A stretch of 64,000 nt of DNA, taken from Methanomassiliicoccales archaeon. Its GTDB lineage: Archaea; Thermoplasmatota; Thermoplasmata; Methanomassiliicoccales; JAAEEP01. Shown here piece by piece: positions 5,702 through 34,350 of this stretch (position 1 is the first letter of the stretch; every line of letters begins with the position of its first letter). Position numbers and translations under genes: made by a program. The notes beneath the pieces are model-generated. The model saw nothing but the letters and a program-made list of their open reading frames with translations, was not told where the DNA came from and searched no databases. The stretch spans positions 21,318-85,317 of the forward strand of contig JAAEEP010000006.1 in assembly GCA_013415695.1 (NCBI GenBank), in the 5' to 3' direction.

Positions 5702-6475
5702 TCAGGCACCTCCCCTCAACAGAGCCTTGTATTTCGGTGTAGGGCCCTCAATGGAGTCCATGCCTATGAGATTCCTCGACCTCAGAACGACTACTTGCTT
5801 CAGTATTTCTTGAGGGGGAGCACCTATCTCTTCCGCCAATTCCTTTACTGAGAGGGGATTGGTCTTAGTCAATTGGAGGATAAGATTTCTTTCATAGTCC
5901 TCCTTTACCACCACTTCGGTCAGCTCATCCAGTTCATCAACGTTGATGAGGTCGCCGTAGACATTCCCTCTCTGAGTAAGATCCAATTCCTTGCCGCTGA
6001 GAAGCCTCAGCCTGTACTCTCGGGCAGTCCCAATAGCGGCGTCGAGCTTCACTTGAAGCTCCTCATTGTCCTTGACCGGGGATGGTCCAAGCTTCTTCAG
6101 GTACTTGACGAAATCGTCGACAACCTCGGCGAACCTCTCGCCTTCCGAGGCTGAGACAGGTTCTAACCTCAGCCTCCCTGGGTCAAGACCAACGAATTCC
6201 ATCAACTGCCATGCCATCTCCACCCTCTTCTGCGTGTATATGTGAGCGGAGAGATTGCAGCAGTCCTCGATGTGACAACCCCCGATCAACACCCCATCAG
6301 CTCCCTCGCTGAACACTTCGAGGATTATGTGAGCGGTAATCCTGGTGCTGCAAAGCACCCTGATAGAGCGTATATTGGTTGAATACTGGAAATGACTCAC
6401 GCCTGCCAGGTCAGCACCGGCATAGGCGCAGAAGTTGCATAGGAAACCAATGATCTTTGGTTCAAAGTTGCTCAC
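5702..6475 (-). CDS. mvhD: MvhD-like domain with a C-terminal extension of about 120 aa resembling a winged helix-turn-helix
   Basis: GTG 6475 overlaps the hdrA stop (GTGA). Reads SNFEPKIIGFLCNFCAYAGADLAG..GADGVLIGGCHIEDC, then ..NLILQLTKTNPLSVKELAEEIGAPPQEILKQVVVLRSRNLIGMDSIEG. The track extension to 6694 is rejected. Confidence 0.75.
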   Translation of the reverse strand: MSNFEPKIIGFLCNFCAYAGADLAGVSHFQYSTNIRSIRVLCSTRITAHIILEVFSEGADGVLIGGCHIEDCCNLSAHIYTQKRVEMAWQLMEFVGLDPGRLRLEPVSASEGERFAEVVDDFVKYLKKLGPSPVKDNEELQVKLDAAIGTAREYRLRLLSGKELDLTQRGNVYGDLINVDELDELTEVVVKEDYERNLILQLTKTNPLSVKELAEEIGAPPQEILKQVVVLRSRNLIGMDSIEGPTPKYKALLRGGA

Positions 6476-9400
6476 TCCATCACCTCCTTGAGGGCCACAC
6501 AGGCCTCGGCCAGGAGCTGAGAATCTGTGTAATGCATGAGGACGATTGCCCCCACTGGGCAGGCTGCTCCGCAGGAGCCGCACCCCTTGCATAGGGCAGG
6601 GTTCACAGACGCTTTCAGAGCACCTGTGGAGTCTTCTTTCATATCTACCGCACTGAAAGCACAGACCTCCTGGCAAATGCCGCAAGCCCTGCACTTCAAT
6701 TCATCGATCACTGGAACCGGGGCCATCCCCTCTAACTCGCTCTTCGCGATTATGGTCATGGCCTTCGAAGCAACGGCCGCGCCCTGGGCGATGCTCTCGT
6801 TGGCAAGCTTCGGCCAATGGGCAAGACCTGCCATGTAAATACCTTCAGTGGAAAATTCCACAGGTCTTAACTTCATATGAGCCTCCTGGAAGAAGCCATC
6901 TTTGCTAAGGTGAATCTTTAGCATCCTTGCCAGCTTGCTCGAATCTTCCCTGGGTCTAATACCAGTGGAAAGGACCAAGAGGTCCGCATTGACAACCACC
7001 TCATCTCCGAGAATGAAGTCATTGGCGCTGACCAATAATCTACCATCTTCCATCTTGACCTCAGGCATTTCGGCATCAGGCATCCTTATGAACTTCACAC
7101 CCAACTCGCAAGCTTCCCGATAGAGATCCTCCCTGAGGCCGTAGGTCCTTATGTCCTTACAGAAAACAAAGACATTTGAACCTGGGTTGCTCCTCATTAC
7201 ATTAATTGCATTGTTCATAGCTGTCGTGCAGCAGATACAGCTGCACATCGGATTGTCCTCGGTCCGGGAGCCAACACACTGGATCATGACCACATTCTTG
7301 GCCTCGAGAGGTTTCTCGGCCATCATCTCTGCCAACTCCAGCTGTGTGACCACACGGTCATCCTCGCCGTAGAAGTATTCCTGTGGTTGATACTCCTCAG
7401 CGCCTGTGGCCACAATGATGGCCCCAGCCTTTATCGGTCCACCATTGGTATTGAGCACGAAGTTGCCCACGAAACCCGCTACTTCCTCTATCTCTGTCTC
7501 AAGATGGACGGTCACCCTATCATTTGACATGACTCTGGAAATCATCTCATCCGCAGCTTCCCTTCCGGTTTTGCCGTCTTGCTTAAAAAGCACTCTATTC
7601 AAATGACCTCCAAGCCTGTCTGATCTCTCGATCAGATCGACCTCGTAGCCATTACTGGCGATCTCCAGGGCGGATGTCATTCCGGCGAGACCGCCTCCTA
7701 TGACCGTGACGGAATGGCCAATTGGGAATGTGGGTGTTGTCAAAGGCTCAACCAGTCTTACCTTGGCCACTGCCATCTTAACCAGATCATTTGCCTTAGC
7801 GGTGGCCTTTCTCTTCTCATTCATGTGAACCCACGAGCATTGATCGCGTATGTTTGCCATCTCCAGGAGATACTGGTTCAGGCCAGCTTCCCTGATGCAA
7901 TTCTGGAATAGCAGTTCGTGTGTCCTTGGAGAACACGAAGCGATCACTATCCTGTTCAATCTGTGTTCTTCGATCTTCTCCTTCATCAATTCAAGTGCGT
8001 CCTGTGAGCACGCATAAAGGAAGTCGGAAACGCTGATCACATCGGGCAGTTCCTTCGTGGCCTGTACAACCTTCTTCACATTGACCACACCACCGATGTT
8101 TCTACCACAGTGACATACGAATACCCCTATTCTGGGCTTCTCACCCTGCACATCCTTTTCTGAGGGGTAGTCCTTTCGAAGGATGGAGACTTTCTCCCGT
8201 TCGGTGACGGTCGAAAGCGCTTTAGAAGCTGTTCCAGACGCCTCAGCGACAGAGGCTGGTATGTCCTTTGGTGCTGAGAAGGTCCCACACACGTAGATAC
8301 CATCCCTGGAAGTGGATAAAGGATCCCAGACGCTTGTGGAGCAGAATCCGTCCTTGTTGAGCTCGACGCCGAAAACCTTGGAGATTTCCCCGGCCGATGT
8401 GGTAGGGCAGACACCCACTGACAGAACCACAAGATCGAAGGTCTCCTCGACCAGTCTTTCACCATCGCTGTAGTGAACAATAAGGTTCTCGTCGTCATCC
8501 TCATCAATGGAGGCGACTCGAGTCCCTCGATGGATCACAACTCCTTCTTCCTGCTCCGCCCGGATACGATAGTCCTCGAACTCCTTGCCAACCGTCCTTA
8601 CGTCCATGAAGAATATGTGCGGCTCCACCTTATTGAGGCGGTTCTTGGCGATCATGGCTGCCTTGAGTGCATGCATGCAACAGACAGATGAACAGTAGGT
8701 GTTTCCTACCTTATCATCTCTGGAACCCACACATTGGAGGAATGCAATTCTATTTGGCGCCTTCTTGTCAGATGGCCTTAGTAATTGGCCTTCATAGGGT
8801 CCAGCAGTGCTGAGGATCCTTTCAAATTCTCTGCTCGACACAACATTCTTGAAGAACTCATAGCCGTACTCCGTCTTCATTGAGGCATTGCATTCATCAA
8901 AACCAGGACAGAGTATCACTGAGTTGACTTCGAACTCGATCTCCTCGTCCTCCATATCAAAATTGATGGCGTCGTACTCACAGACCTTTGCGCATATTCC
9001 GCACTTCCCCTGTGTCAGATATAGACAGGTCTCTGGATCTATGACCGCGGTCTTCGGAACCGCTTGTGGAAATGGAATATATATCGCCTTTCTCGTAGAT
9101 AGTCCAAGTTCCCAGTAATCTAGGACTCCTTTCACAGGACACTTCTCAATGCAGTCCCCACGACCCATGCATTTTTCCTGATCGATGTATGTGGCCTTCC
9201 TGAGAACCTTCACCTTGAAGTCTCCCTTGTCGCCCTCAAGCCCAATCACCTTGGAATGGGTTAGAACATTGATGTTTGGATGGCCATAGCAGTCAACCAT
9301 TTTCGGAGCCAGTATGCATATCGAGTAATCATTAGTTGGGAAAGTCTTGTCCAATTGGGCCATCTTCCCACCAATGCTTGGATCTTCTTCTACCAGATAC

Positions 9401-25914: not shown

Positions 25915-26010
25915 ATCATCAATAAATACTATATAAAATATTACTATATAGTAATTTCTTTTCATTCTTCAAAAAACTGCAAATAGTTGGGTTTCGTTCT
26001 GGAAACCATC

Positions 26011-26976
26011 ATGCTCCAGTCAATCTCTTCCAAGCTCGAAAAGGGCAGGAAGCTCATACTCATCCACGGAAATGCAGACCCCGATGCACTGGGATGTGCC
26101 TATGCTATCGCAAAGGCTTTCCCAGAAGGAGATATCGTGGCACCTGGTGGCCTGGACAGAATATCAAAGATCATCACTGACAAGCTAGGGATTGAAGTAG
26201 GTGAGAATGCAGATTTCTCTGATTATGATCTGGTTGTAGTCGTTGACACCTCATCCCCCGACCAGCTTGAGAATCTCAGCGATGTCCCTCTGGGTAGTGT
26301 AATAATAGATCATCATGCCCGTACCGAAAAGTGGAATGGTTGCGTCTATTACTGCGATGAATCGAAACGGAGCTGTGCAGAGATCGTTCTCGAGCTGGTC
26401 CGAATCGATGGAAAGGAACTGGATAGGGATGTTGGCCTAGTCTTACTCGCTGGAATGATCACCGATAGCGGTCACTTCAGGTACGCGAACCAAGAACTGT
26501 TGACCACCTTCGCCGAGTTATTGAGGGAAAACGAACTGGAGATCGACGAGGTATTCGCACTTACCGATATGGAGCAGGTCATATCAGAGAGGATAGCCCA
26601 GCTGAAGGGCGGTCAGAGACTCAAATTTGATAGGATAGGGCGATACATAGTGGCGATCTCCCATGGTTCATCCTTCGAAAGCTCCGTCTCAAAATCGCTG
26701 TTGTCACTTGGCGCAGACGTGGCGTTCGTAGGTTCCCAGCGCGAAGATCGGTTCAGAGTAAGCGCAAGGGCCAGGCAGGAGATGGTAAGGATGGGATTGC
26801 ACCTTGGAAGAATGTTGGAGGATATCGGTTTCGAGACCTCCAACGATGGTGGAGGACATCCCGGAGCTGCTGGTCTTATCGGGGAAGGTGATGTTGAAGC
26901 AATGCTCAACATGTGCATGAGGCGCACGATGGACTTCTTTAGAAAGATCAGAGATTCAGAACCTATCAGGAATTGA
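26011..26976 (+). CDS. DHH/DHHA1 phosphoesterase (NrnA-like)
   Basis: HGNADPDALG, VVVDTSSP, IIDHH and GGGHPGAAG. Confidence 0.8.
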   Translation: MLQSISSKLEKGRKLILIHGNADPDALGCAYAIAKAFPEGDIVAPGGLDRISKIITDKLGIEVGENADFSDYDLVVVVDTSSPDQLENLSDVPLGSVIIDHHARTEKWNGCVYYCDESKRSCAEIVLELVRIDGKELDRDVGLVLLAGMITDSGHFRYANQELLTTFAELLRENELEIDEVFALTDMEQVISERIAQLKGGQRLKFDRIGRYIVAISHGSSFESSVSKSLLSLGADVAFVGSQREDRFRVSARARQEMVRMGLHLGRMLEDIGFETSNDGGGHPGAAGLIGEGDVEAMLNMCMRRTMDFFRKIRDSEPIRN

Positions 26977-27006
26977 GAAAGATAAAAGAAATGGGATCGA
27001 GGAAGA

Positions 27007-28059
27007 TCACTTGTCTAGGATCTCCCTGATCTTTTCCAGGTTCTCCGGGTGTTTTTCGAAGAACTCCCGCACGGGAGCGAGCATCTCCACAAGGGCGGAG
27101 GAGGTCCCGTTCTTGAGGTCCATTGGATGCAGTTGTCCTGCTACGTATGATTCCTCGAGTGCCGAATAGCTCTCAAAGACCAAGGGACCGCCGAACTTCT
27201 CCGGACGATCGATCTTCAGGAAGTCCATTCTTTGGAATATTATGAAACGGCAAATATCCAGTATTGGATTTCCCTCTGCCTCTGGAGGGCAGAATGCCTT
27301 CTTTATCTTCCTCCTGATGTCCTCGGGAGAGTCGTGAATCATGATCCCACTGTCGGGGTCGCTCTTGGACATCTTGGCTGCAAGAGGATCCATTCGATCA
27401 CCTCCCTTGAGCCCCGATAACAAGGGCGTATGCAACGCTACTGGCTTCTTCCAGCCGAGTTTATCAGCGGCTTCCCTGGCCAGCATGTGCGCCCTTCTCT
27501 GATCCATGCCTGCGTAGGCCACATCAACATCCAGGGCAAAAATGTCAGCCGCCTGCATCAGGGGATACATGACCTTGGAGGTGTCCACCTCGGCCTCATC
27601 ACCCTCTCTTCCCATGATGGTCATGGCTCTCTTCACCCTGGATAGGGTTGAGTTCTTCCCGATGCTGATGACCTTAGACCAATAATCGATGTTATCCATT
27701 AGTTCAAAGGCATAGACGAAATTGACCTTGTCCCTGGGCACACCGAGTGCCTCGAAACAGTCCTCCATATACCTGGCACATATCCTGATGGTGCCGATGT
27801 TTCCACCGAGCTTGTCGTTGATATAGGCGTGCCAGTCTGCGAAGAACACCGTGAAGTCGAATCCTGCGTCGACGAAGTCTCTCACCTTGTTGGATATGAT
27901 AACCCAGCCAAGGTGCACCAGGCCCGAAGGCTCGAAACCGACGTAGCCCTTCGGTCGGTCGTTTGTCTCCAAGAGCTTCCTCAGCTCTTCCGGGGTAACG
28001 ACCTCCTCGGCATTCCTGGTCAGTAGGTCAAATCGTTCCTCTGAGTCCATGGAAATCAA
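27007..28059 (-). CDS. tyrS: Tyrosine--tRNA ligase (archaeal type)
   Basis: GFEPSGLVHLG, YPLMQAADI, KMSKS, PEDIRRKIKKAFCP; collinear with archaeal TyrRS. Confidence 0.9.
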   Translation of the reverse strand: MISMDSEERFDLLTRNAEEVVTPEELRKLLETNDRPKGYVGFEPSGLVHLGWVIISNKVRDFVDAGFDFTVFFADWHAYINDKLGGNIGTIRICARYMEDCFEALGVPRDKVNFVYAFELMDNIDYWSKVISIGKNSTLSRVKRAMTIMGREGDEAEVDTSKVMYPLMQAADIFALDVDVAYAGMDQRRAHMLAREAADKLGWKKPVALHTPLLSGLKGGDRMDPLAAKMSKSDPDSGIMIHDSPEDIRRKIKKAFCPPEAEGNPILDICRFIIFQRMDFLKIDRPEKFGGPLVFESYSALEESYVAGQLHPMDLKNGTSSALVEMLAPVREFFEKHPENLEKIREILDK

Positions 28060-28139
28060 GGTCGAATCACCAGCCGCTTATTAAATACTTCTGGGAATTA
28101 AGAGGAAGATCGTTCATATTCTCCGAAAAGCCGAATCAG

Positions 28140-28294
28140 AGTTATGATGATTCTAATATGAATCACTTAATCATTATTATACATATGTATAGTAATTTTG
28201 ATTCATATTATACATATATCTATTCTAATAATACATTATATACAATTATAGTGTTTAACAACCTTTAAGTAGATATTTGTTTATAAACTAATTC
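28140..28294. promoter_or_regulatory. Strongly AT-rich divergent promoter region (tyrS / amt operon) with repeated TTATACATAT
   Basis: TTATACATAT occurs twice, alongside related ATACATTATATAC. Sequence inspection only. Confidence 0.4.
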
Positions 28295-28559
28295 ATGTCT
28301 CCAATAAATGTCTATCAAAATGGAATTGTTGATTCACAGTATTCCATTTTTATGGGCTTCGAGTGTACAAATATAGGAGAATATTCGGTGTCATTAGTCA
28401 AATATTATTCTCCAAGAAGGCAGAAATCGATTGAGATTGGGGCAAGTACCAACTCCCCTGATTCATCTCCGGAATGCTTTCCCCTAGCACTCATCAGGAG
28501 GCACAGCGAGGGGTCAAGACCTCGTGACATAAACGGCTCATCGAGCTACAAACACCAAT

Positions 28560-28602
28560 GGGACGGTCGTCAAACACCACACCTTTCTGACGCGACCGTC
28601 CC
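28560..28602 (+). promoter_or_regulatory. Perfect 10-bp stem hairpin in the amt leader
   Basis: GGGACGGTCG (28560-69) pairs with CGACCGTCCC (28593-602) around a 23-nt loop. Further hairpins: CCTGAT/ATCAGG (28458-63/28491-96) and CGAGG/CCTCG (28507-11/28520-24). Confidence 0.4.
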
Positions 28603-28691
28603 TTCACCCAGTATGATCAACTGCGCCTACGGAGAGTTGGGTCTTCAGGTGCGCACACGCTCTAAGAAAGGTAAAGTGAGGTGAATAAGAA

Positions 28692-30101
28692 GTGAGGAAA
28701 ACGACGCTGGTTCTAGTGGCAATCCTATTGGTAGGAGTGTTCCTCTTCATTCCATCGACAGTCATGGCAGCCGATCCCTCGGGAGCGGAAACCATCGCCA
28801 CGGAGGGAGAAGGAATTGCTCTCGACTTCATCTGGATACTGCTATGTGCTTTCTTGGTCTTCAGCATGCACGCCGGGTTCGCAATGTTGGAATCCGGATT
28901 CTCCAGATCGAAGAACGTGACCAATGTGCTTATGAAGAACATCATGGCCTTTTCTGTAGGCACTATCTCGTTCTTCGTCGTTGGATATGTCTTTCTAATG
29001 GGCACTGATTTCGCTGGCTTTTTCGGCACGGACGGATTCATGCTGCTAGGGGACTTCTACGATGTCAACACGTTGCTGCTGTGGTTCTTCATGCTTGTCT
29101 TCGCCGCTACCTCCGCCACAATCGTGAGTGGGGCTATCGCGGAGAGGACTAAATTCAGCACATTCATCATAGTAACTGTTGCGATTACCGCTGTCATCTA
29201 TCCCATATACGGACATTGGATCTGGGGCGGTGGGTGGCTCTCTTCGGCAAATTTCCTTGTAGATCTGGGTGGCGGCTATGGGGCTCTCGATTTTGCGGGA
29301 TCTGGTGTAGTCCACGCGGTGGGCGGTTTCATCGCCCTCGCGGGCTGTCTGATCATTGGTCCGAGGATAGGGAAGTACAGCTCTGACGGAAAACCAAATC
29401 CCATTCCAGGCCACAGCATGACCCTGGCAGTACTGGGTGCATTCATACTCTGGTTTGGATGGTTCGGATTCAACGCTGGGAGTACCCTCTCCGCATACGA
29501 GCTTAGGATATCAGTAATTGCAGTCAACACCAATATGGCGGCCGCAGCAGGCGCCATCACGGCAATGGGGATCACATGGCAGAAATTCGGCAAACCAGAT
29601 ATCGCCATGACCGTAAACGGTGCGATAGGTGGTCTTGTAGGAATAACCGCGGGTTGTGCTTGGGTAGCCCCCTGGGCTTCATTGGTCATTGGAGTGGCAG
29701 CCGGAGCAATCGTATGCTATGCATATTGGTATCTTGAGAGCAAAGGAGTGGATGATGTGGTGGGAGCCATCTCGGTGCACGCTTTCGGCGGAATCTGGGG
29801 GCTCATCGCCCTTGGCCTGTTCGCTGATGGCACCTATGGCAACTACACCACAGAGGGGCCTCTAGTTACCGGTCTTCTATACGGCAACCCCGGATTCTTC
29901 GTGGTCCAACTGATCAGCGTTTTGGTTGTCATATTGTGGGCGTTTGGACTCGGTCTGGCCTTATTCTATACGCTCAAGAAGACCACTGGTGTCAGGGTCG
30001 AGCCCGTGGAGGAAATTGAGGGTCTTGACCTTGCAGAGCACGGTTCTCTAGCATATCCAGAGTTCGTATCAATGGACCTTGTCGTCAAGAGGAGGCGGTA
30101 G
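28692..30101 (+). CDS. amt: Ammonium transporter Amt
   Basis: GTG start after GAGGTGA. Signal-like N-terminus, then FLVFSMHAGFAMLESG, AGSGVVH and the usual multi-TM layout. Confidence 0.9.
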   Translation: MRKTTLVLVAILLVGVFLFIPSTVMAADPSGAETIATEGEGIALDFIWILLCAFLVFSMHAGFAMLESGFSRSKNVTNVLMKNIMAFSVGTISFFVVGYVFLMGTDFAGFFGTDGFMLLGDFYDVNTLLLWFFMLVFAATSATIVSGAIAERTKFSTFIIVTVAITAVIYPIYGHWIWGGGWLSSANFLVDLGGGYGALDFAGSGVVHAVGGFIALAGCLIIGPRIGKYSSDGKPNPIPGHSMTLAVLGAFILWFGWFGFNAGSTLSAYELRISVIAVNTNMAAAAGAITAMGITWQKFGKPDIAMTVNGAIGGLVGITAGCAWVAPWASLVIGVAAGAIVCYAYWYLESKGVDDVVGAISVHAFGGIWGLIALGLFADGTYGNYTTEGPLVTGLLYGNPGFFVVQLISVLVVILWAFGLGLALFYTLKKTTGVRVEPVEEIEGLDLAEHGSLAYPEFVSMDLVVKRRR

Positions 30102-30103
30102 CG

Positions 30104-30442
30104 ATGAAGAAAATCGAGGCTATCATAAGGCATGAGAAGCTGGATGAGGTGAAGAGCTCCCTCGATGAGGCAGGCATAGTGGGCATGACAATCTCCGAGG
30201 TCATGGGACGCGGCCGGCAGAAAGGTTTCGAACGCCAGTGGAGGGGCATGGTCTATGTAGCGGATCTTGTCCCCAAGATCAAGCTCGAGATCATTGTCGA
30301 CGACAAGGACGTCGAGTTGGCGATCGATACCATCCTGAAATCCGCATGGACTGGGGACACCGGAGACGGCAAGATCTTCGTGACCGACGTCGAGGAGGTC
30401 ATCAGAGTTCGCACCGGAGAGCGGGGAAGGGATGCGATATGA
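30104..30442 (+). CDS. glnK: PII nitrogen regulatory protein (GlnK/GlnB)
   Basis: MKKIEAIIRHEKLDEVKSSLDEAGIVGMTISEVMGRGRQKG..TGDTGDGKIFV. Confidence 0.9.
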   Translation: MKKIEAIIRHEKLDEVKSSLDEAGIVGMTISEVMGRGRQKGFERQWRGMVYVADLVPKIKLEIIVDDKDVELAIDTILKSAWTGDTGDGKIFVTDVEEVIRVRTGERGRDAI

Positions 30443-31395
30443 GCTTCCCTGTTGAGGTGCGTAAGAATCAGGAATACCACACGGGGGACGAGAAACCCCG
30501 TTACTTCCTGGAGGTCGATCTGAATATGGTCGCTCCGGGAAGGAAGGCTTCCCTCCCCATCTATTGGAGATCCAACAGTTCTCACCCGGTGCTCAAGGAG
30601 ATATATCACACCGAGATCGGTGGCTTCGCGATCGAGAGGGGGAACCTTCCCTCTCTCCTTGATTCGGTCAAGAACGCCATGGGCGGAATGATGGAGAACG
30701 GGACTTTGCCCTACTATTCGATCGTGCTTCCCAATGGCAACCGGCTATCGATATTTCTGGTTAAGGACAAGCTTCAGGCGAGAATCGGTCGAACGAAGAT
30801 CGAGGGGAAGGACATTGCAGACGTCTACAAGCAGCTGAGAGAGGCTCTGAAGGGGATAGGGATGATCACGAATGGTTCCCAGCTTAAGGTGAATATCTTC
30901 CTCTGGCACGATTTGAGATTGTACCCGCCCGCCTTCATTCTCAGAGATATTAGAGAAAGGGTTTGGACCCCCATCTTCTGCTCCCTGAAGGAGGGGGAGG
31001 CGATGCTGAACTACGATGAGGTCAACCGGCCTTCGGAGATGATCGAGATTAAAAATGTTCTCAATTTGCGCGACCAGATGGCATACAGGATCGCGTCCTA
31101 CGGGACCGTAAGGTCAGCCAATCAGATATTCATGGATCAGACCCACGATGCGGTCTGGAAGACCATCAGAGAACAGGTCGATAGAACCGATGAAGTTCTC
31201 AGCTACGAGAAGAGTGATTTGAGATTTGAGATACCAATCTACACGGCGAGGACCGGGCTGATTGCAGCTGACAGGCCCAAGGTGTTCTTCGGCAAGGATC
31301 CGTCTAGCCTGGCTTCGGTAGTGGCCGAGGTCCTCAAGGCGAACGGCACCATTGCCAGCTCCGTTTCGCTGAGATTGGATACCAAGAGGAGGTAG
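30439..31395 (+). CDS. Unrecognised soluble protein (318 aa), translationally coupled to glnK
   Basis: ATG 30439 overlaps the glnK stop (ATGA). No TM segment and no motif I recognise. The track extension from 30238 lies inside glnK and is rejected. Confidence 0.6.
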   Translation: MSFPVEVRKNQEYHTGDEKPRYFLEVDLNMVAPGRKASLPIYWRSNSSHPVLKEIYHTEIGGFAIERGNLPSLLDSVKNAMGGMMENGTLPYYSIVLPNGNRLSIFLVKDKLQARIGRTKIEGKDIADVYKQLREALKGIGMITNGSQLKVNIFLWHDLRLYPPAFILRDIRERVWTPIFCSLKEGEAMLNYDEVNRPSEMIEIKNVLNLRDQMAYRIASYGTVRSANQIFMDQTHDAVWKTIREQVDRTDEVLSYEKSDLRFEIPIYTARTGLIAADRPKVFFGKDPSSLASVVAEVLKANGTIASSVSLRLDTKRR

Positions 31396-31399
31396 TTGA

Positions 31400-32812
31400 A
31401 TGTATGAAATAATCGGAGCAGTGATAGGTGGAGCAGTACTCCTATTCCTGATCTGGGCAGTGAGATACACCAAATGCGGGCCCAACGAGGTGCTTATCAT
31501 CTCGGGTCGGAAGCGCAAGGATGCGACGAGCAAGAAGAGCGCCGGTTTCCGGATAATCAGAGGGGGCGGTACATTTGTCTGGCCTTTCAAAGAAACTGTC
31601 AAGCGGATGTCGCTGGAGATCATGAACCTTGATGTGCGCACCAGCGATGTGTACACTAAGCCAGGTGTTCCCATATCCGTGGAGGCGGCCTCGCAAGTGA
31701 AGGTGAAGGGTGATGACGAGTCCATCATCCTGGCGGCGGAGAACTTCCTCTCCAGGCCTAAGGACGACGTTATGAAGACCGCCCTTCAGGTACTTGAGGG
31801 CCACACCCGCGCGGCAATATCTATGATGACCCCGGAGGAGGCCTACCAGATGAGGCGTGAGCTCGCCAACAGATCCAAGGAGGAGGCCTCCGCTGACCTC
31901 AACAGGATGGGGCTGGAGATCGTCTCCCTGACCATAAGGAACGTTTACGACAACCAGGGCTACCTGGAGGCCGTTGGCAGGCCCCGGACAGCCCAGGTTA
32001 AGAGGGATGCGCTTATCGGTGAGGCTCTTGCTGACGAGGAGGCCAAGAAGGTCCAGTACGATGCCGAGACCAAGATAGAGGAGTCCCGTAGGAACTACGA
32101 GATACAAAAGGCCGGTTACGACGCTTCCGTTGCTGAGAGGAAGGCGGAGTCCGATCTCGCCTACGATCTGCAGAGGTTCAAGACCGAGCAGAAGGTGAAG
32201 GAAGAGGAGATCAAGGTCGGCATTGTCGAGAAACAGATGGCGACCGAGCTCGCCGAGAAGGAAATCGCCAGGAAAGAGAAGGAACTCTACGCTGAGGTGG
32301 TGAAACCTGCGGAGGCCGAGAAGCTCAAGATCGAGAGGTTGGCTGAAGCTGAGAAGTTCAAGCTGACGACCGAGGCCGATGGAGAGTCCATGGCCATCAA
32401 GCGCAGGGGATTCGCTGAGGCTGATGTGATCAAGCAGAAAGGTGTCGCGGAGGCGGAGACCATGACGCTAAAAGCTGAGGCCTGGAGCAACTATAACGAG
32501 GCGGCCGTCACCGAGATGTTCGTGGACGTCCTTCCCAAGATGGCTGAGGCAGTCGCACAGCCTCTGGCTCAGACAGATAAGATCACCATCATTTCGCAGG
32601 ACGGTCAGTCTACTGGGGCGGATCGCATAGTGGGCGACATAACCGGCGTGATAGCAAAGCTCCCCACAATCGTCGAATCCCTTACAGGAACCAAGCTAAG
32701 CGATCTGATCAAGAAGATCCCTGGCCTGGGGGAGGCTTTCGAGGACGATGATATGGAGACAAGTGAAACCCACACGGAGAGTGAGAGCGGATGGTCAGAA
32801 AAAGCCTTCTGA
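31400..32812 (+). CDS. Flotillin-like SPFH/band-7 protein
   Basis: N-terminal TM segment, an SPFH core (NLDVRTSDVYTKPGVPISVEA), and a long EA-rich coiled coil (AEAEKLKIERLAEAEKFKL). Confidence 0.85.
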   Translation: MYEIIGAVIGGAVLLFLIWAVRYTKCGPNEVLIISGRKRKDATSKKSAGFRIIRGGGTFVWPFKETVKRMSLEIMNLDVRTSDVYTKPGVPISVEAASQVKVKGDDESIILAAENFLSRPKDDVMKTALQVLEGHTRAAISMMTPEEAYQMRRELANRSKEEASADLNRMGLEIVSLTIRNVYDNQGYLEAVGRPRTAQVKRDALIGEALADEEAKKVQYDAETKIEESRRNYEIQKAGYDASVAERKAESDLAYDLQRFKTEQKVKEEEIKVGIVEKQMATELAEKEIARKEKELYAEVVKPAEAEKLKIERLAEAEKFKLTTEADGESMAIKRRGFAEADVIKQKGVAEAETMTLKAEAWSNYNEAAVTEMFVDVLPKMAEAVAQPLAQTDKITIISQDGQSTGADRIVGDITGVIAKLPTIVESLTGTKLSDLIKKIPGLGEAFEDDDMETSETHTESESGWSEKAF

Positions 32813-34284
32813 GATCAAAGAAGGAGGCAAAGTCAAAAGACCCGAAGGACCTCAAGAAGGAAGCGAAGCGGAGGGATAAGGATGATCCCTTCACCCGCTT
32901 CATATCCGGAGAGATCAAGATGGTGGACTTCAAGTTCACCGACCTCCCTGGAGGCCTGCAGCACATCACCATCCCTGCCGAGCGGTTCAACCCAGAAGTG
33001 CTTGCTGAGGGGATAGGTTTCGATGGTTCCAGCATCAGGGGGTTTGCGGAGATACAGGAGAGCGACATGCAGCTCGTCCCCGATCGAACGACGGCTTTCG
33101 TCGATCCCGTCTGTAAGCTCCCAACCCTTTCATTTCTATGCAACGTGTTCGATCCCGTCACAAAGGAAAGGTTCTGGAACGACCCGAGGTACATCGCCCA
33201 GAAAGCTGAGGAATATTTGGTATCCTCGGGAATCGCAGACACTGTGAATATGGGGCCAGAGGCAGAGTTCTTCATCTTCGACTCGGTAAGGTTCGACCAG
33301 AACGAGCACAGCAGCTATTACTTCGTGGATTCGGATGAGGGTATATGGAACTCTGGTTCTGACGACGGCCCTAACCTGGCCCACAGACCTAGGTACAAGG
33401 GTGGATACTTCCCCGTCCCACCCACCGACTCACTCAATGATATCAGGTCCGAGGCGATGCTGAAGATGGCTGAGGTTGGGATCGAGACAGAGGTGCACCA
33501 CCACGAGGTCGCAACTGCGGGACAGGGAGAGATCGGCATCAAGTACTCGACCCTAACCAAAGCCGCTGACAACATAATACTCTACAAGTACATCGTGAAG
33601 AACACTGCACTGGAATTCGGGAAAACGGTGACATTCATGCCAAAGCCCCTTTTCGGGGACAACGGGACCGGGATGCACGTCCACATATCACTGGCCAAGG
33701 AAGGTGACAACCTCTTCTACGGATCAGAGGGATATGCGCAGCTTAGCATCAGTGCCATGCACTTCATGGGCGGTTTGCTTGAGCATGCGGCCTCAGTACT
33801 TGCGTTCACCAATCCGACCACGAACTCATATCGCAGACTCGTTCCAGGGTTCGAAGCCCCTGTCAACCTCGTGTACTCGCAGAGGAATAGGAGCGCAGCG
33901 ATTAGAATTCCAGTCGTTTCTTCTCCCAAGGCCAAGAGGATGGAGTTCCGTCCCCCTGACCCATCCAGCAATCCATACCTAGCGTTTGCGGCCATTCTAA
34001 TGGCTGGACTCGATGGCGTGAAGCGCAGGATAGATCCGGGTGACCCCATGGATGTCGATATATTCGAGCTCCCGAGGGACAAGATCGCCAACATCAGAAC
34101 GGTGCCTGGATCACTTGAGAAAGTGCTTGAGGCGCTTGAGTCAGATCACGAATACCTGCTCAAAGGAGGGGTATTCACCAAGGGGCTGATAGAAACATGG
34201 ATAGAATATAAGAGGAAGAGAGAGAACGACCCTATGAGGCTTCGGCCACATCCTTACGAGTTCTACCTCTACTTCGATGTGTGA
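32791..34284 (+). CDS. glnA: Glutamine synthetase type I
   Basis: FDGSSIRGF, NMGPEAEFF, HHHEVATAGQGEI, KPLFGDNGTGMHVH and NSYRRLVPGFEAP. The start is ambiguous. ATG 32791 gives a Lys-rich extension and overlaps flotillin by 22 nt. ATG 32920 would truncate the usual N-terminal helix. Confidence 0.9.
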   Translation: MVRKSLLRSKKEAKSKDPKDLKKEAKRRDKDDPFTRFISGEIKMVDFKFTDLPGGLQHITIPAERFNPEVLAEGIGFDGSSIRGFAEIQESDMQLVPDRTTAFVDPVCKLPTLSFLCNVFDPVTKERFWNDPRYIAQKAEEYLVSSGIADTVNMGPEAEFFIFDSVRFDQNEHSSYYFVDSDEGIWNSGSDDGPNLAHRPRYKGGYFPVPPTDSLNDIRSEAMLKMAEVGIETEVHHHEVATAGQGEIGIKYSTLTKAADNIILYKYIVKNTALEFGKTVTFMPKPLFGDNGTGMHVHISLAKEGDNLFYGSEGYAQLSISAMHFMGGLLEHAASVLAFTNPTTNSYRRLVPGFEAPVNLVYSQRNRSAAIRIPVVSSPKAKRMEFRPPDPSSNPYLAFAAILMAGLDGVKRRIDPGDPMDVDIFELPRDKIANIRTVPGSLEKVLEALESDHEYLLKGGVFTKGLIETWIEYKRKRENDPMRLRPHPYEFYLYFDV

Positions 34285-34314: not shown

Positions 34315-34350
34315 GATGGCAAGGGTTGCCATCCTTTTTTCTATTTTCTT
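34315..34350 (+). terminator. Hairpin plus T-tract after glnA
   Basis: GATGGCAA-ggg-TTGCCATC followed by CTTTTTTCTATTTTCTT. Confidence 0.6.

Follow-up and report, generated by a model that had tools for sequence, protein, structure and literature searches.

What is done by a protein that matches no known family and whose gene begins inside the last codons of a PII gene? The question is raised by a 64,000-nucleotide (nt) stretch of a Methanomassiliicoccales archaeon genome (assembly GCA_013415695.1, contig JAAEEP010000006.1, positions 21,318 to 85,317 of the forward strand), here called the window, in which a protein of 318 amino acids (aa), here called X, is encoded at the 3' end of glnK. The original prediction, made from the letters of the window, described X as an orphan and as a candidate new target or effector of PII. 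X was found instead to belong to a new protein family contained in a five-gene cassette, which is an extended amt-glnK module. At a probability of roughly 40%, X is read here as an adaptor without enzymatic activity that works close to the membrane in the Amt/GlnK ammonium-uptake complex and may link that complex to flotillin and glutamine synthetase (GS). The five genes are all on the + strand and tightly packed between positions 28692 and 34284, and are listed here with the features that join and follow them.

28692..30101, + strand: amt, ammonium transporter, 469 aa, first gene of the cassette (Pfam Ammonium_transp, E 4.4e-123)
30104..30442, + strand: glnK, PII signal protein, 112 aa, canonical T-loop and ATP ligands (Pfam P-II, E 8.5e-32)
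30439..30442, + strand: ATGA start/stop overlap of glnK and X (X ATG at 30439-30441, glnK TGA at 30440-30442)
30439..31395, + strand: X, 318 codons with stop TAG at 31393-31395; four ββββα modules, predicted to be cytoplasmic, no transmembrane (TM) segment
31400..32812, + strand: flotillin/SPFH protein, 470 aa, N-terminal membrane anchor (Pfam Band_7, E 4.1e-25; Flot, E 3.4e-8)
32791..34284, + strand: glnA, GS type I, 497 aa as called (Pfam Gln-synt_C, E 1.6e-129; Gln-synt_N)
34315..34343, + strand: terminator-like hairpin with a T-run 3' of glnA, from a terminator scan

The amt stop and the glnK start are separated by 2 nt, and the two genes are adjacent and co-oriented, as in an amt-glnK operon. 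The X stop lies 4 nt before the flotillin start, and the 5' end of glnA overlaps the 3' end of the flotillin gene by 22 nt. No terminator-like site was found on the + strand within 28692-34284, and the hairpin after glnA is likely the end of the transcription unit. The ATGA overlap of X with glnK is present as predicted and supports coupled translation of the two proteins; the predicted 1:1 expression goes further than the overlap, which is no proof of that stoichiometry. Neither an X paralog nor a second amt or second glnK was found in the window. The cassette flotillin scored 360 bits against the NCBIfam FloT model, under its 700-bit cut-off.

X is a real gene, with full-length homologs at 40-84% identity and a confident AlphaFold model; an identical database entry is annotated as 'hypothetical protein' (GKC03_04310) in a Methanomassiliicoccales metagenome-assembled genome. 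The predicted failure to place X in any family was confirmed, with 0 matches at E ≤ 1 in Pfam and NCBIfam. Comparisons with PDB chain sequences gave nothing significant for the single sequence (best E 0.77), for a 31-sequence profile (0.38) or for a repeat-unit profile (0.15). When 31 family members were scanned against Pfam-A, only one was matched, in an added C-terminal dCache/PDC domain and not in X. The X family is without a known relative in Pfam, NCBIfam or PDB sequences, and neither Pfam nor NCBIfam models it. A Kyte-Doolittle scan agreed with the prediction that X has no TM segment, and motif scans agreed that it has no Cys or nucleotide-binding motif (one Cys; no Walker A, GxGxxG, CxxC or HExxH). 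No catalytic-type or ligand-binding motif conserved across the family was found in the alignments and motif scans, and isoelectric points within the family range from 5.3 to 9.5.

The label of orphan did not hold. A word-indexed search returned 13 full-length relatives at 40-100% identity, the identical entry included, from which an alignment of X and 12 non-identical full-length relatives was built (A1, 13 sequences); a second alignment holds 31 family sequences (A2). By an exhaustive HMMER scan of 1.84 billion representatives, 53 X clusters (50% identity) were recovered from Archaea and Bacteria at E ≤ 1e-3, 30 of them at E ≤ 1e-10. Judged by source names, the hosts are Methanomassiliicoccales/Thermoplasmata and members of four bacterial phyla (Thermoleophilaceae, of the Thermoleophilia; Chloroflexi; Armatimonadota; Thermodesulfobacteriota). 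Among 185,579 species-representative genomes, searched with patterns from the close archaeal alignment A1 only, five X loci were found, all in Thermoplasmata. The X family is widespread but rare. One candidate member (P0049, 710 aa, matched in 11 short stretches) was discarded as a spurious, repetitive low-complexity match.

Gene neighborhoods were counted across 20 distinct loci, the window included. Linkage of X homologs to nitrogen genes had been set as a check beforehand, and PII was encoded directly upstream of X in 17 of the 20 loci (exceptions L019, L020 and L021). Directly downstream, a flotillin (SPFH) gene was present in 15 of the 19 loci with downstream sequence (exceptions L005, L023, L020 and L021), and the X-flotillin junctions were spacers of 1-4 nt or overlaps. 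The cassette included glnA in 15/17 loci with enough sequence, L020 and L021 being the exceptions, and amt was upstream of or fused to X in 14/17 (exceptions L004, L012 and L019). The overlap of the X start with the 3' end of glnK is not a chance feature of the window genome, as it is kept in 13 of the 17 PII-linked loci. Ten of these 13 have an NTGA overlap, with ATG, GTG or TTG as the start codon; the overlaps in L022-L024 are 11-14 nt long, where reading frame and family N-terminus were used to infer the X start. Spacers of 7-16 nt separate glnK and X in the bacterial cassettes.

Given the PII linkage in 17/20 loci, and given that no confident match to an unrelated known family was obtained by Pfam, NCBIfam, PDB sequence or Foldseek searches, a functional tie of X to GlnK is well supported by context. 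The predicted role as a PII target or effector is too narrow, because the linkage to flotillin (15/19) and glnA (15/17) is about as tight, Amt fusions of X occur without glnK (L020, L021) and X is followed by flotillin in a locus without PII (L019).

The order amt-glnK-X-flotillin-glnA is unchanged in archaea and in the Thermoleophilaceae and Chloroflexi contigs, and the cassette is therefore common to both domains as a unit. When the window cassette is compared with that of Thermoleophilaceae, GlnA is 59% identical, GlnK 51%, flotillin 50% and Amt 42%, but X only 25%, and X is therefore the fastest-evolving member. Shortened variants also occur: glnK-X-glnA with flotillin absent (L005, L023), PII-X-flotillin-glnA with amt absent nearby (L004, L012), X-flotillin with no PII or amt upstream (L019), and an Amt::X fusion alone, with no glnK, flotillin or glnA nearby (L020, L021). 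Two of the loci contain broken reading frames. In the Chloroflexi locus L016, amt matches fall in two separate pieces at 6286-7516, where no gene was called, and the Amt::X fusion of L020 (3519-5782) is split into open reading frames (ORFs) of 531 and 201 aa; these may be frameshifts, pseudogenes or assembly errors.

The natural fusions indicate where X would act. P0060 (748 aa) and P0099 (753 aa) each join a complete Amt domain (residues 14-416, Pfam E 2.5e-123) through a Pro/Ala-rich linker of about 65 residues to X, which is thus placed at the Amt C-terminus; this arrangement was found in one bacterial group. Four other forms, P0037, P0040 (Armatimonadota), P0045 and P0048, begin with a hydrophobic TM helix, followed by basic residues and a linker and then by X. 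Amt has its C-terminus in the cytoplasm, and GlnK docks on the channel from that side; the fusion and the TM anchor therefore place X in the cytoplasm near the membrane and Amt. Given the Amt fusions, X is probably a new accessory subunit of the ammonium uptake and assimilation machinery, and the TM-anchored forms would again put it at the inner face of the membrane. Anchoring as a general property of X in bacterial cassettes was ruled out: P0071, P0073 and P0078 (Thermoleophilaceae/Chloroflexi) have no hydrophobic segment, and only the four forms named above have one. In the Thermodesulfobacteriota, a PDC/dCache sensor domain is fused C-terminal to X (P0033, P0109 and P0112), apparently with no TM segment, which suggests a small-molecule input to X in this lineage.

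The AlphaFold2 model of X, built from a 13-sequence alignment, has a mean predicted local distance difference test (pLDDT) score of 88.7 and a predicted template modeling score of 0.83. Its DSSP pattern consists of four successive blocks of 4-6 strands, each closed by a helix (ββββα modules). When the modules were compared with each other using HHalign, probabilities were 90% for modules 1 and 2, 95.7% for 2 and 3, 95.2% for 2 and 4 and 95.6% for 3 and 4, and the N-terminal half matched the C-terminal half at 94.9% over 110 columns. On these profile comparisons the four modules are judged to be homologous.

30439..30702, + strand: X module 1, residues 1-88; signature N10, R21, K53-E54-x-Y56, G62, E66, N69-L70
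30703..30873, + strand: X module 2, residues 89-145, from HHalign and DSSP
30874..31110, + strand: X module 3, residues 146-224, from HHalign (modules 3 and 4, as above)
31111..31392, + strand: X module 4, residues 225-318, with a basic C-terminal tail, TKRR

Conservation is highest in module 1 (0.53 versus 0.41-0.47 for the other modules), and its signature columns are near-invariant in alignment A2. When the C-terminal half was modeled alone, pLDDT was 86 and the first strand of module 3 was disordered; this strand probably packs against the N-terminal half in the full protein.

A known fold was to be assigned to X at a Foldseek E ≤ 1e-3 or a template modeling score (TM-score) ≥ 0.5 to a PDB or BFVD entry. 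Nothing significant was returned for the full model against PDB (best E 0.038, the DnaN clamp, TM-score 0.14) or BFVD (best E 0.023), or for the C-terminal half against PDB (best E 0.21), and TM-scores across all of these non-significant matches were 0.09-0.25. Sliding clamps (DnaN/PCNA) top the Foldseek list, but with probabilities ≤ 0.15, TM-scores of 0.09-0.14 and a root-mean-square deviation of about 21 Å, and X was rejected as a clamp. A Tudor or PipX-like assignment was likewise rejected: tandem Tudor matches were non-significant (E ≥ 0.09, TM-score about 0.2), X matches no Pfam family, PipX included, and it is 318 aa long. The ββββα order fits the PUR/PC4/Whirly proteins, with Pur-alpha at rank 39 in Foldseek with the C-terminal half (E 0.89, TM-score 0.21-0.25); no Pfam PurA or Whirly match was found in X. 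Because none of them passes the threshold, the clamp, Tudor and PUR likenesses are leads only.

The PII proteins encoded with X were aligned with one another and with E. coli GlnK. In the window, GlnK is of the canonical type, with R38, Q39, R47, Y51 and K90 all present (R47 and Y51 in the T-loop, R38 and K90 as ATP ligands). In cassettes with two PII genes (L002, L010, L011 and L013), the PII after amt is canonical and has a C-terminal extension, and the PII that overlaps X carries R38->E, R36->S and G41->E. K90 is replaced by V or I in the fully aligned X-overlapping PIIs of L002, L011 and L013. The sole PII of the amt-less loci L004 and L012 is of this degenerate type, with L or M in place of K90. 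The degenerate X-overlapping PII genes are located as follows.

L002, 2322-2660: degenerate PII overlapping X
L011, 397-735: degenerate PII overlapping X
L013, 6316-6654: degenerate PII overlapping X
L004, 1221-1559: degenerate PII overlapping X, no amt nearby
L012, 6197-6535: degenerate PII overlapping X, no amt nearby

The B-loop motif AWTG is present in 15 of 16 X-adjacent PIIs, where the PII-1 paralogs have ARTG and E. coli GlnK has AYTG. Retention of the degenerate PII together with X in loci without amt (L004, L012) suggests a dedicated PII-X pairing, although common descent of the cassette could produce the same pattern. The degenerate paralog may be a structural partner of X, as the loss of ATP ligands in these X-adjacent PIIs hints. 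The bacterial cassette PIIs (L014 7616-7984, L016 7625-7993 and L018 7625-7993) share at the C-terminus a conserved extension, about 10 residues long, that ends in RIGWGY and is absent in the archaeal PIIs and E. coli GlnK.

The adaptor reading is preferred as the simplest, because it covers the Amt fusion, the membrane anchors, the coupling to glnK, the repeats, the absence of catalytic residues and the speed at which X evolves; rapid change without catalytic constraint fits an adaptor. As proposed, X would be made together with GlnK by coupled translation and would act at the cytoplasmic face of the membrane beside the Amt trimer, where it is predicted to bind GlnK and/or the cytoplasmic face of Amt. 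Where the cassette is complete, X would also join Amt/GlnK to a membrane-anchored flotillin scaffold and/or to GS. Ammonium entry and assimilation could thereby be controlled together, in a regulatory direction that we infer rather than observe.

Several observations weigh against this reading. Around the Amt::X fusions there is no glnK, flotillin or glnA; X can therefore act in the absence of PII and of flotillin, and a single model for all of its partners may be too broad. No amt lies near X in L004, L012 and L019, where it could be elsewhere in the genome. Part of the linkage could arise because the cassette is inherited or transferred in one piece, for which reason the 20 loci are not independent observations; the counts from them cover a minority of the 53 clusters and no TM-anchored form.

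Known systems offer partial parallels to an adaptor of this kind. Recruitment of a third protein to AmtB-GlnK at the membrane is an established principle, as with DraG in Azospirillum and TnrA in Bacillus. The window resembles such operons in its adjacent, co-oriented amt and glnK genes and in the channel-plugging R47 of GlnK; it differs in that the operon is extended by X, flotillin and glnA, X is unrelated in sequence to DraG and TnrA, and some cassettes have, beside X, a further PII whose ATP site is degenerate. Amt proteins with a fused C-terminal signaling domain are also known, for example the Amt-histidine kinase Ks-Amt5. X is likewise a C-terminal cytoplasmic fusion to a complete Amt domain, but it has no kinase, GGDEF or other recognizable output domain and is a separate protein in most genomes. 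PipX is a cyanobacterial protein of about 89 aa, with a Tudor-like domain and two helices, that bridges PII to another protein as a non-enzymatic adaptor; X is also made from small β-rich-plus-helix building blocks, but it matches neither PipX nor any Pfam family, and size and repeat number differ. A parallel in kind of role is sP36 of Methanosarcina mazei, a 61-aa protein that binds both AmtB1 and GlnK1 and on which the interaction of the two depends (PMC10714827). This archaeal protein lies outside the PII and Amt families and acts on the ammonium transporter at the membrane, a role of the kind that is proposed here for X. X is larger, with four modules, and has Amt-fused and TM-anchored variants; sP36 has not been reported with flotillin or with an amt-glnK-flotillin-glnA cassette. 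Because of the sizes (61 versus 318 aa), homology of the two is unlikely, and the likeness would be one of function.

For the flotillin gene, an analogy is offered by SPFH domes that enclose channel oligomers, as described for stomatin with AQP1 and UT-B (PMC12407830) and for the flotillin cage (PMC11260169). The cassette encodes an SPFH protein together with the oligomeric channel Amt, which suggests, by analogy, a scaffold over the transporter; the described systems are eukaryotic and without PII, GS or an X-like partner. A doubtful extension of the adaptor reading is an organized ammonium-assimilation microdomain, in which a flotillin dome or scaffold would cover the Amt trimer and X would tether the PII sensor and GS beneath it, such that NH3/NH4+ is caught at entry and futile cycling is limited. 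If this were true, a prokaryotic flotillin would have its first defined client system in this cassette; X would serve as an adaptor of new fold, accompanied in some lineages by a dedicated PII paralog whose ATP site is degenerate.

The rival that survives best, although unlikely, is that X is mainly a flotillin partner, a functional analog of NfeD that loads or organizes cargo (Amt and/or GS), and that its tie to PII is secondary. NfeD is encoded beside SPFH/flotillin genes, as in yuaF-floT and PH1510-PH1511, and has a C-terminal OB-fold domain and usually TM segments. X resembles it in being encoded immediately upstream of and co-oriented with the SPFH gene, as nfeD is in yuaF-floT, with a very short spacer, and some X members combine a membrane anchor with a soluble β-rich domain. 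The position directly before flotillin in 15/19 loci, with 1-4 nt spacers or overlaps, and the X-flotillin pair of L019, with no PII or amt upstream, are in keeping with such a role, as is the enclosure of channels by SPFH domes (PMC12407830; PMC11260169). X has no Pfam NfeD match, however, and the window X has no TM segment. The conserved overlap is with glnK and not with the flotillin gene, and X is kept in two independent flotillin-less cassettes (L005, L023) and in the Amt::X fusions (L020, L021).

A somewhat less likely rival is that X regulates or assembles the cassette GS under PII control, in a role like that of GlnK1/sP26 in Methanosarcina or IF7/IF17 in cyanobacteria. The presence of glnA in 15/17 loci with enough sequence, and the retention of both glnA and PII in the minimal glnK-X-glnA cassettes (L005, L023), would be expected from it, and archaeal GS is known to be regulated by direct protein binding (PMC10651883, PMC10799026). 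No glnA lies near the Amt::X fusions, however; the fusion and the TM anchors point to the membrane and not to a soluble dodecameric enzyme, and a flotillin gene usually separates X from glnA.

Improbable is a third rival, closest to the original prediction, in which X would be purely a PII receptor or output protein, switched by binding of the GlnK T-loop and with no structural role at Amt or flotillin. The directly upstream PII (17/20 loci), the conserved translational overlap and the specialized degenerate PII paired with X in two-PII cassettes speak for it; the lack of a conserved catalytic or ligand-binding motif in X, the absence of an adjacent PII in L019, L020 and L021 and the fused and membrane-anchored forms, which argue for a positional role, speak against it.

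That X is a nucleic-acid-binding regulator built from PUR/PC4/Whirly-like ββββα or clamp-like repeats, such as a transcription or translation factor sequestered at the membrane by Amt-GlnK in the manner known for TnrA and AmtB-GlnK, is very improbable: the ββββα order is that of PUR repeats and the weak Foldseek matches include Pur-alpha (E 0.89) and many sliding clamps (best E 0.038), but all matches are non-significant (TM-scores 0.09-0.25), isoelectric points spread from 5.3 to 9.5, Pfam gives no PurA or Whirly match, and a permanently fused or TM-anchored X could not reach DNA. The probability left after the adaptor reading and these four rivals belongs to something else.

Regulation of ammonium uptake by PII and Amt is textbook knowledge, yet accessory proteins are still emerging, as with sP36 in 2023. 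Conserved gene order in both domains and a natural Amt fusion connect the X family, for which no sequence or fold relative was detectable, with Amt, GlnK and GS. Unexpectedly, the cassette also joins a prokaryotic flotillin genetically to one specific pair of transporter and enzyme; because the clients of prokaryotic flotillins are poorly defined, this hard-wired operon is a tractable test case. Were the adaptor model true, it would open to direct test whether ammonium entry and assimilation are spatially coupled at the membrane, which has long been discussed. Among the papers searched, none was found that describes the cassette or the X family, or that links flotillin/SPFH proteins to GlnK, AmtB or GS; papers that contain both 'flotillin' and 'AmtB' were judged unrelated.

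Further features were observed at the two ends of the cassette. From its called but uncertain start codon, which lies within the flotillin gene, glnA would add some 28 Lys/Arg-rich residues in front of the usual GS N-terminus (32791-32920). In related archaeal cassettes, the basic stretch at this position is shorter, and the flotillin C-terminus is acidic. Upstream of amt is an intergenic region of 630 nt (28060-28691), with a very AT-rich block at about 28150-28290 and, after it, some 400 nt of ordinary composition; a 129-aa ORF in this region (28295-28684) is of doubtful reality. No match to the NrpR operator GGAA-N6-TTCC was found anywhere in the window, and no credible Rfam match to a riboswitch or other RNA was obtained in the 630-nt region or the cassette. 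Upstream synteny is kept in the closer Methanomassiliicoccales, where exosome, L37ae and prefoldin genes come before a gene for a DHH-family phosphoesterase and, next to it, an oppositely oriented TyrRS gene (window 25987-28059; L001 3842-5796; L006 3621-5682), and the cassette therefore lies in a stable core-genome region and not in an island.

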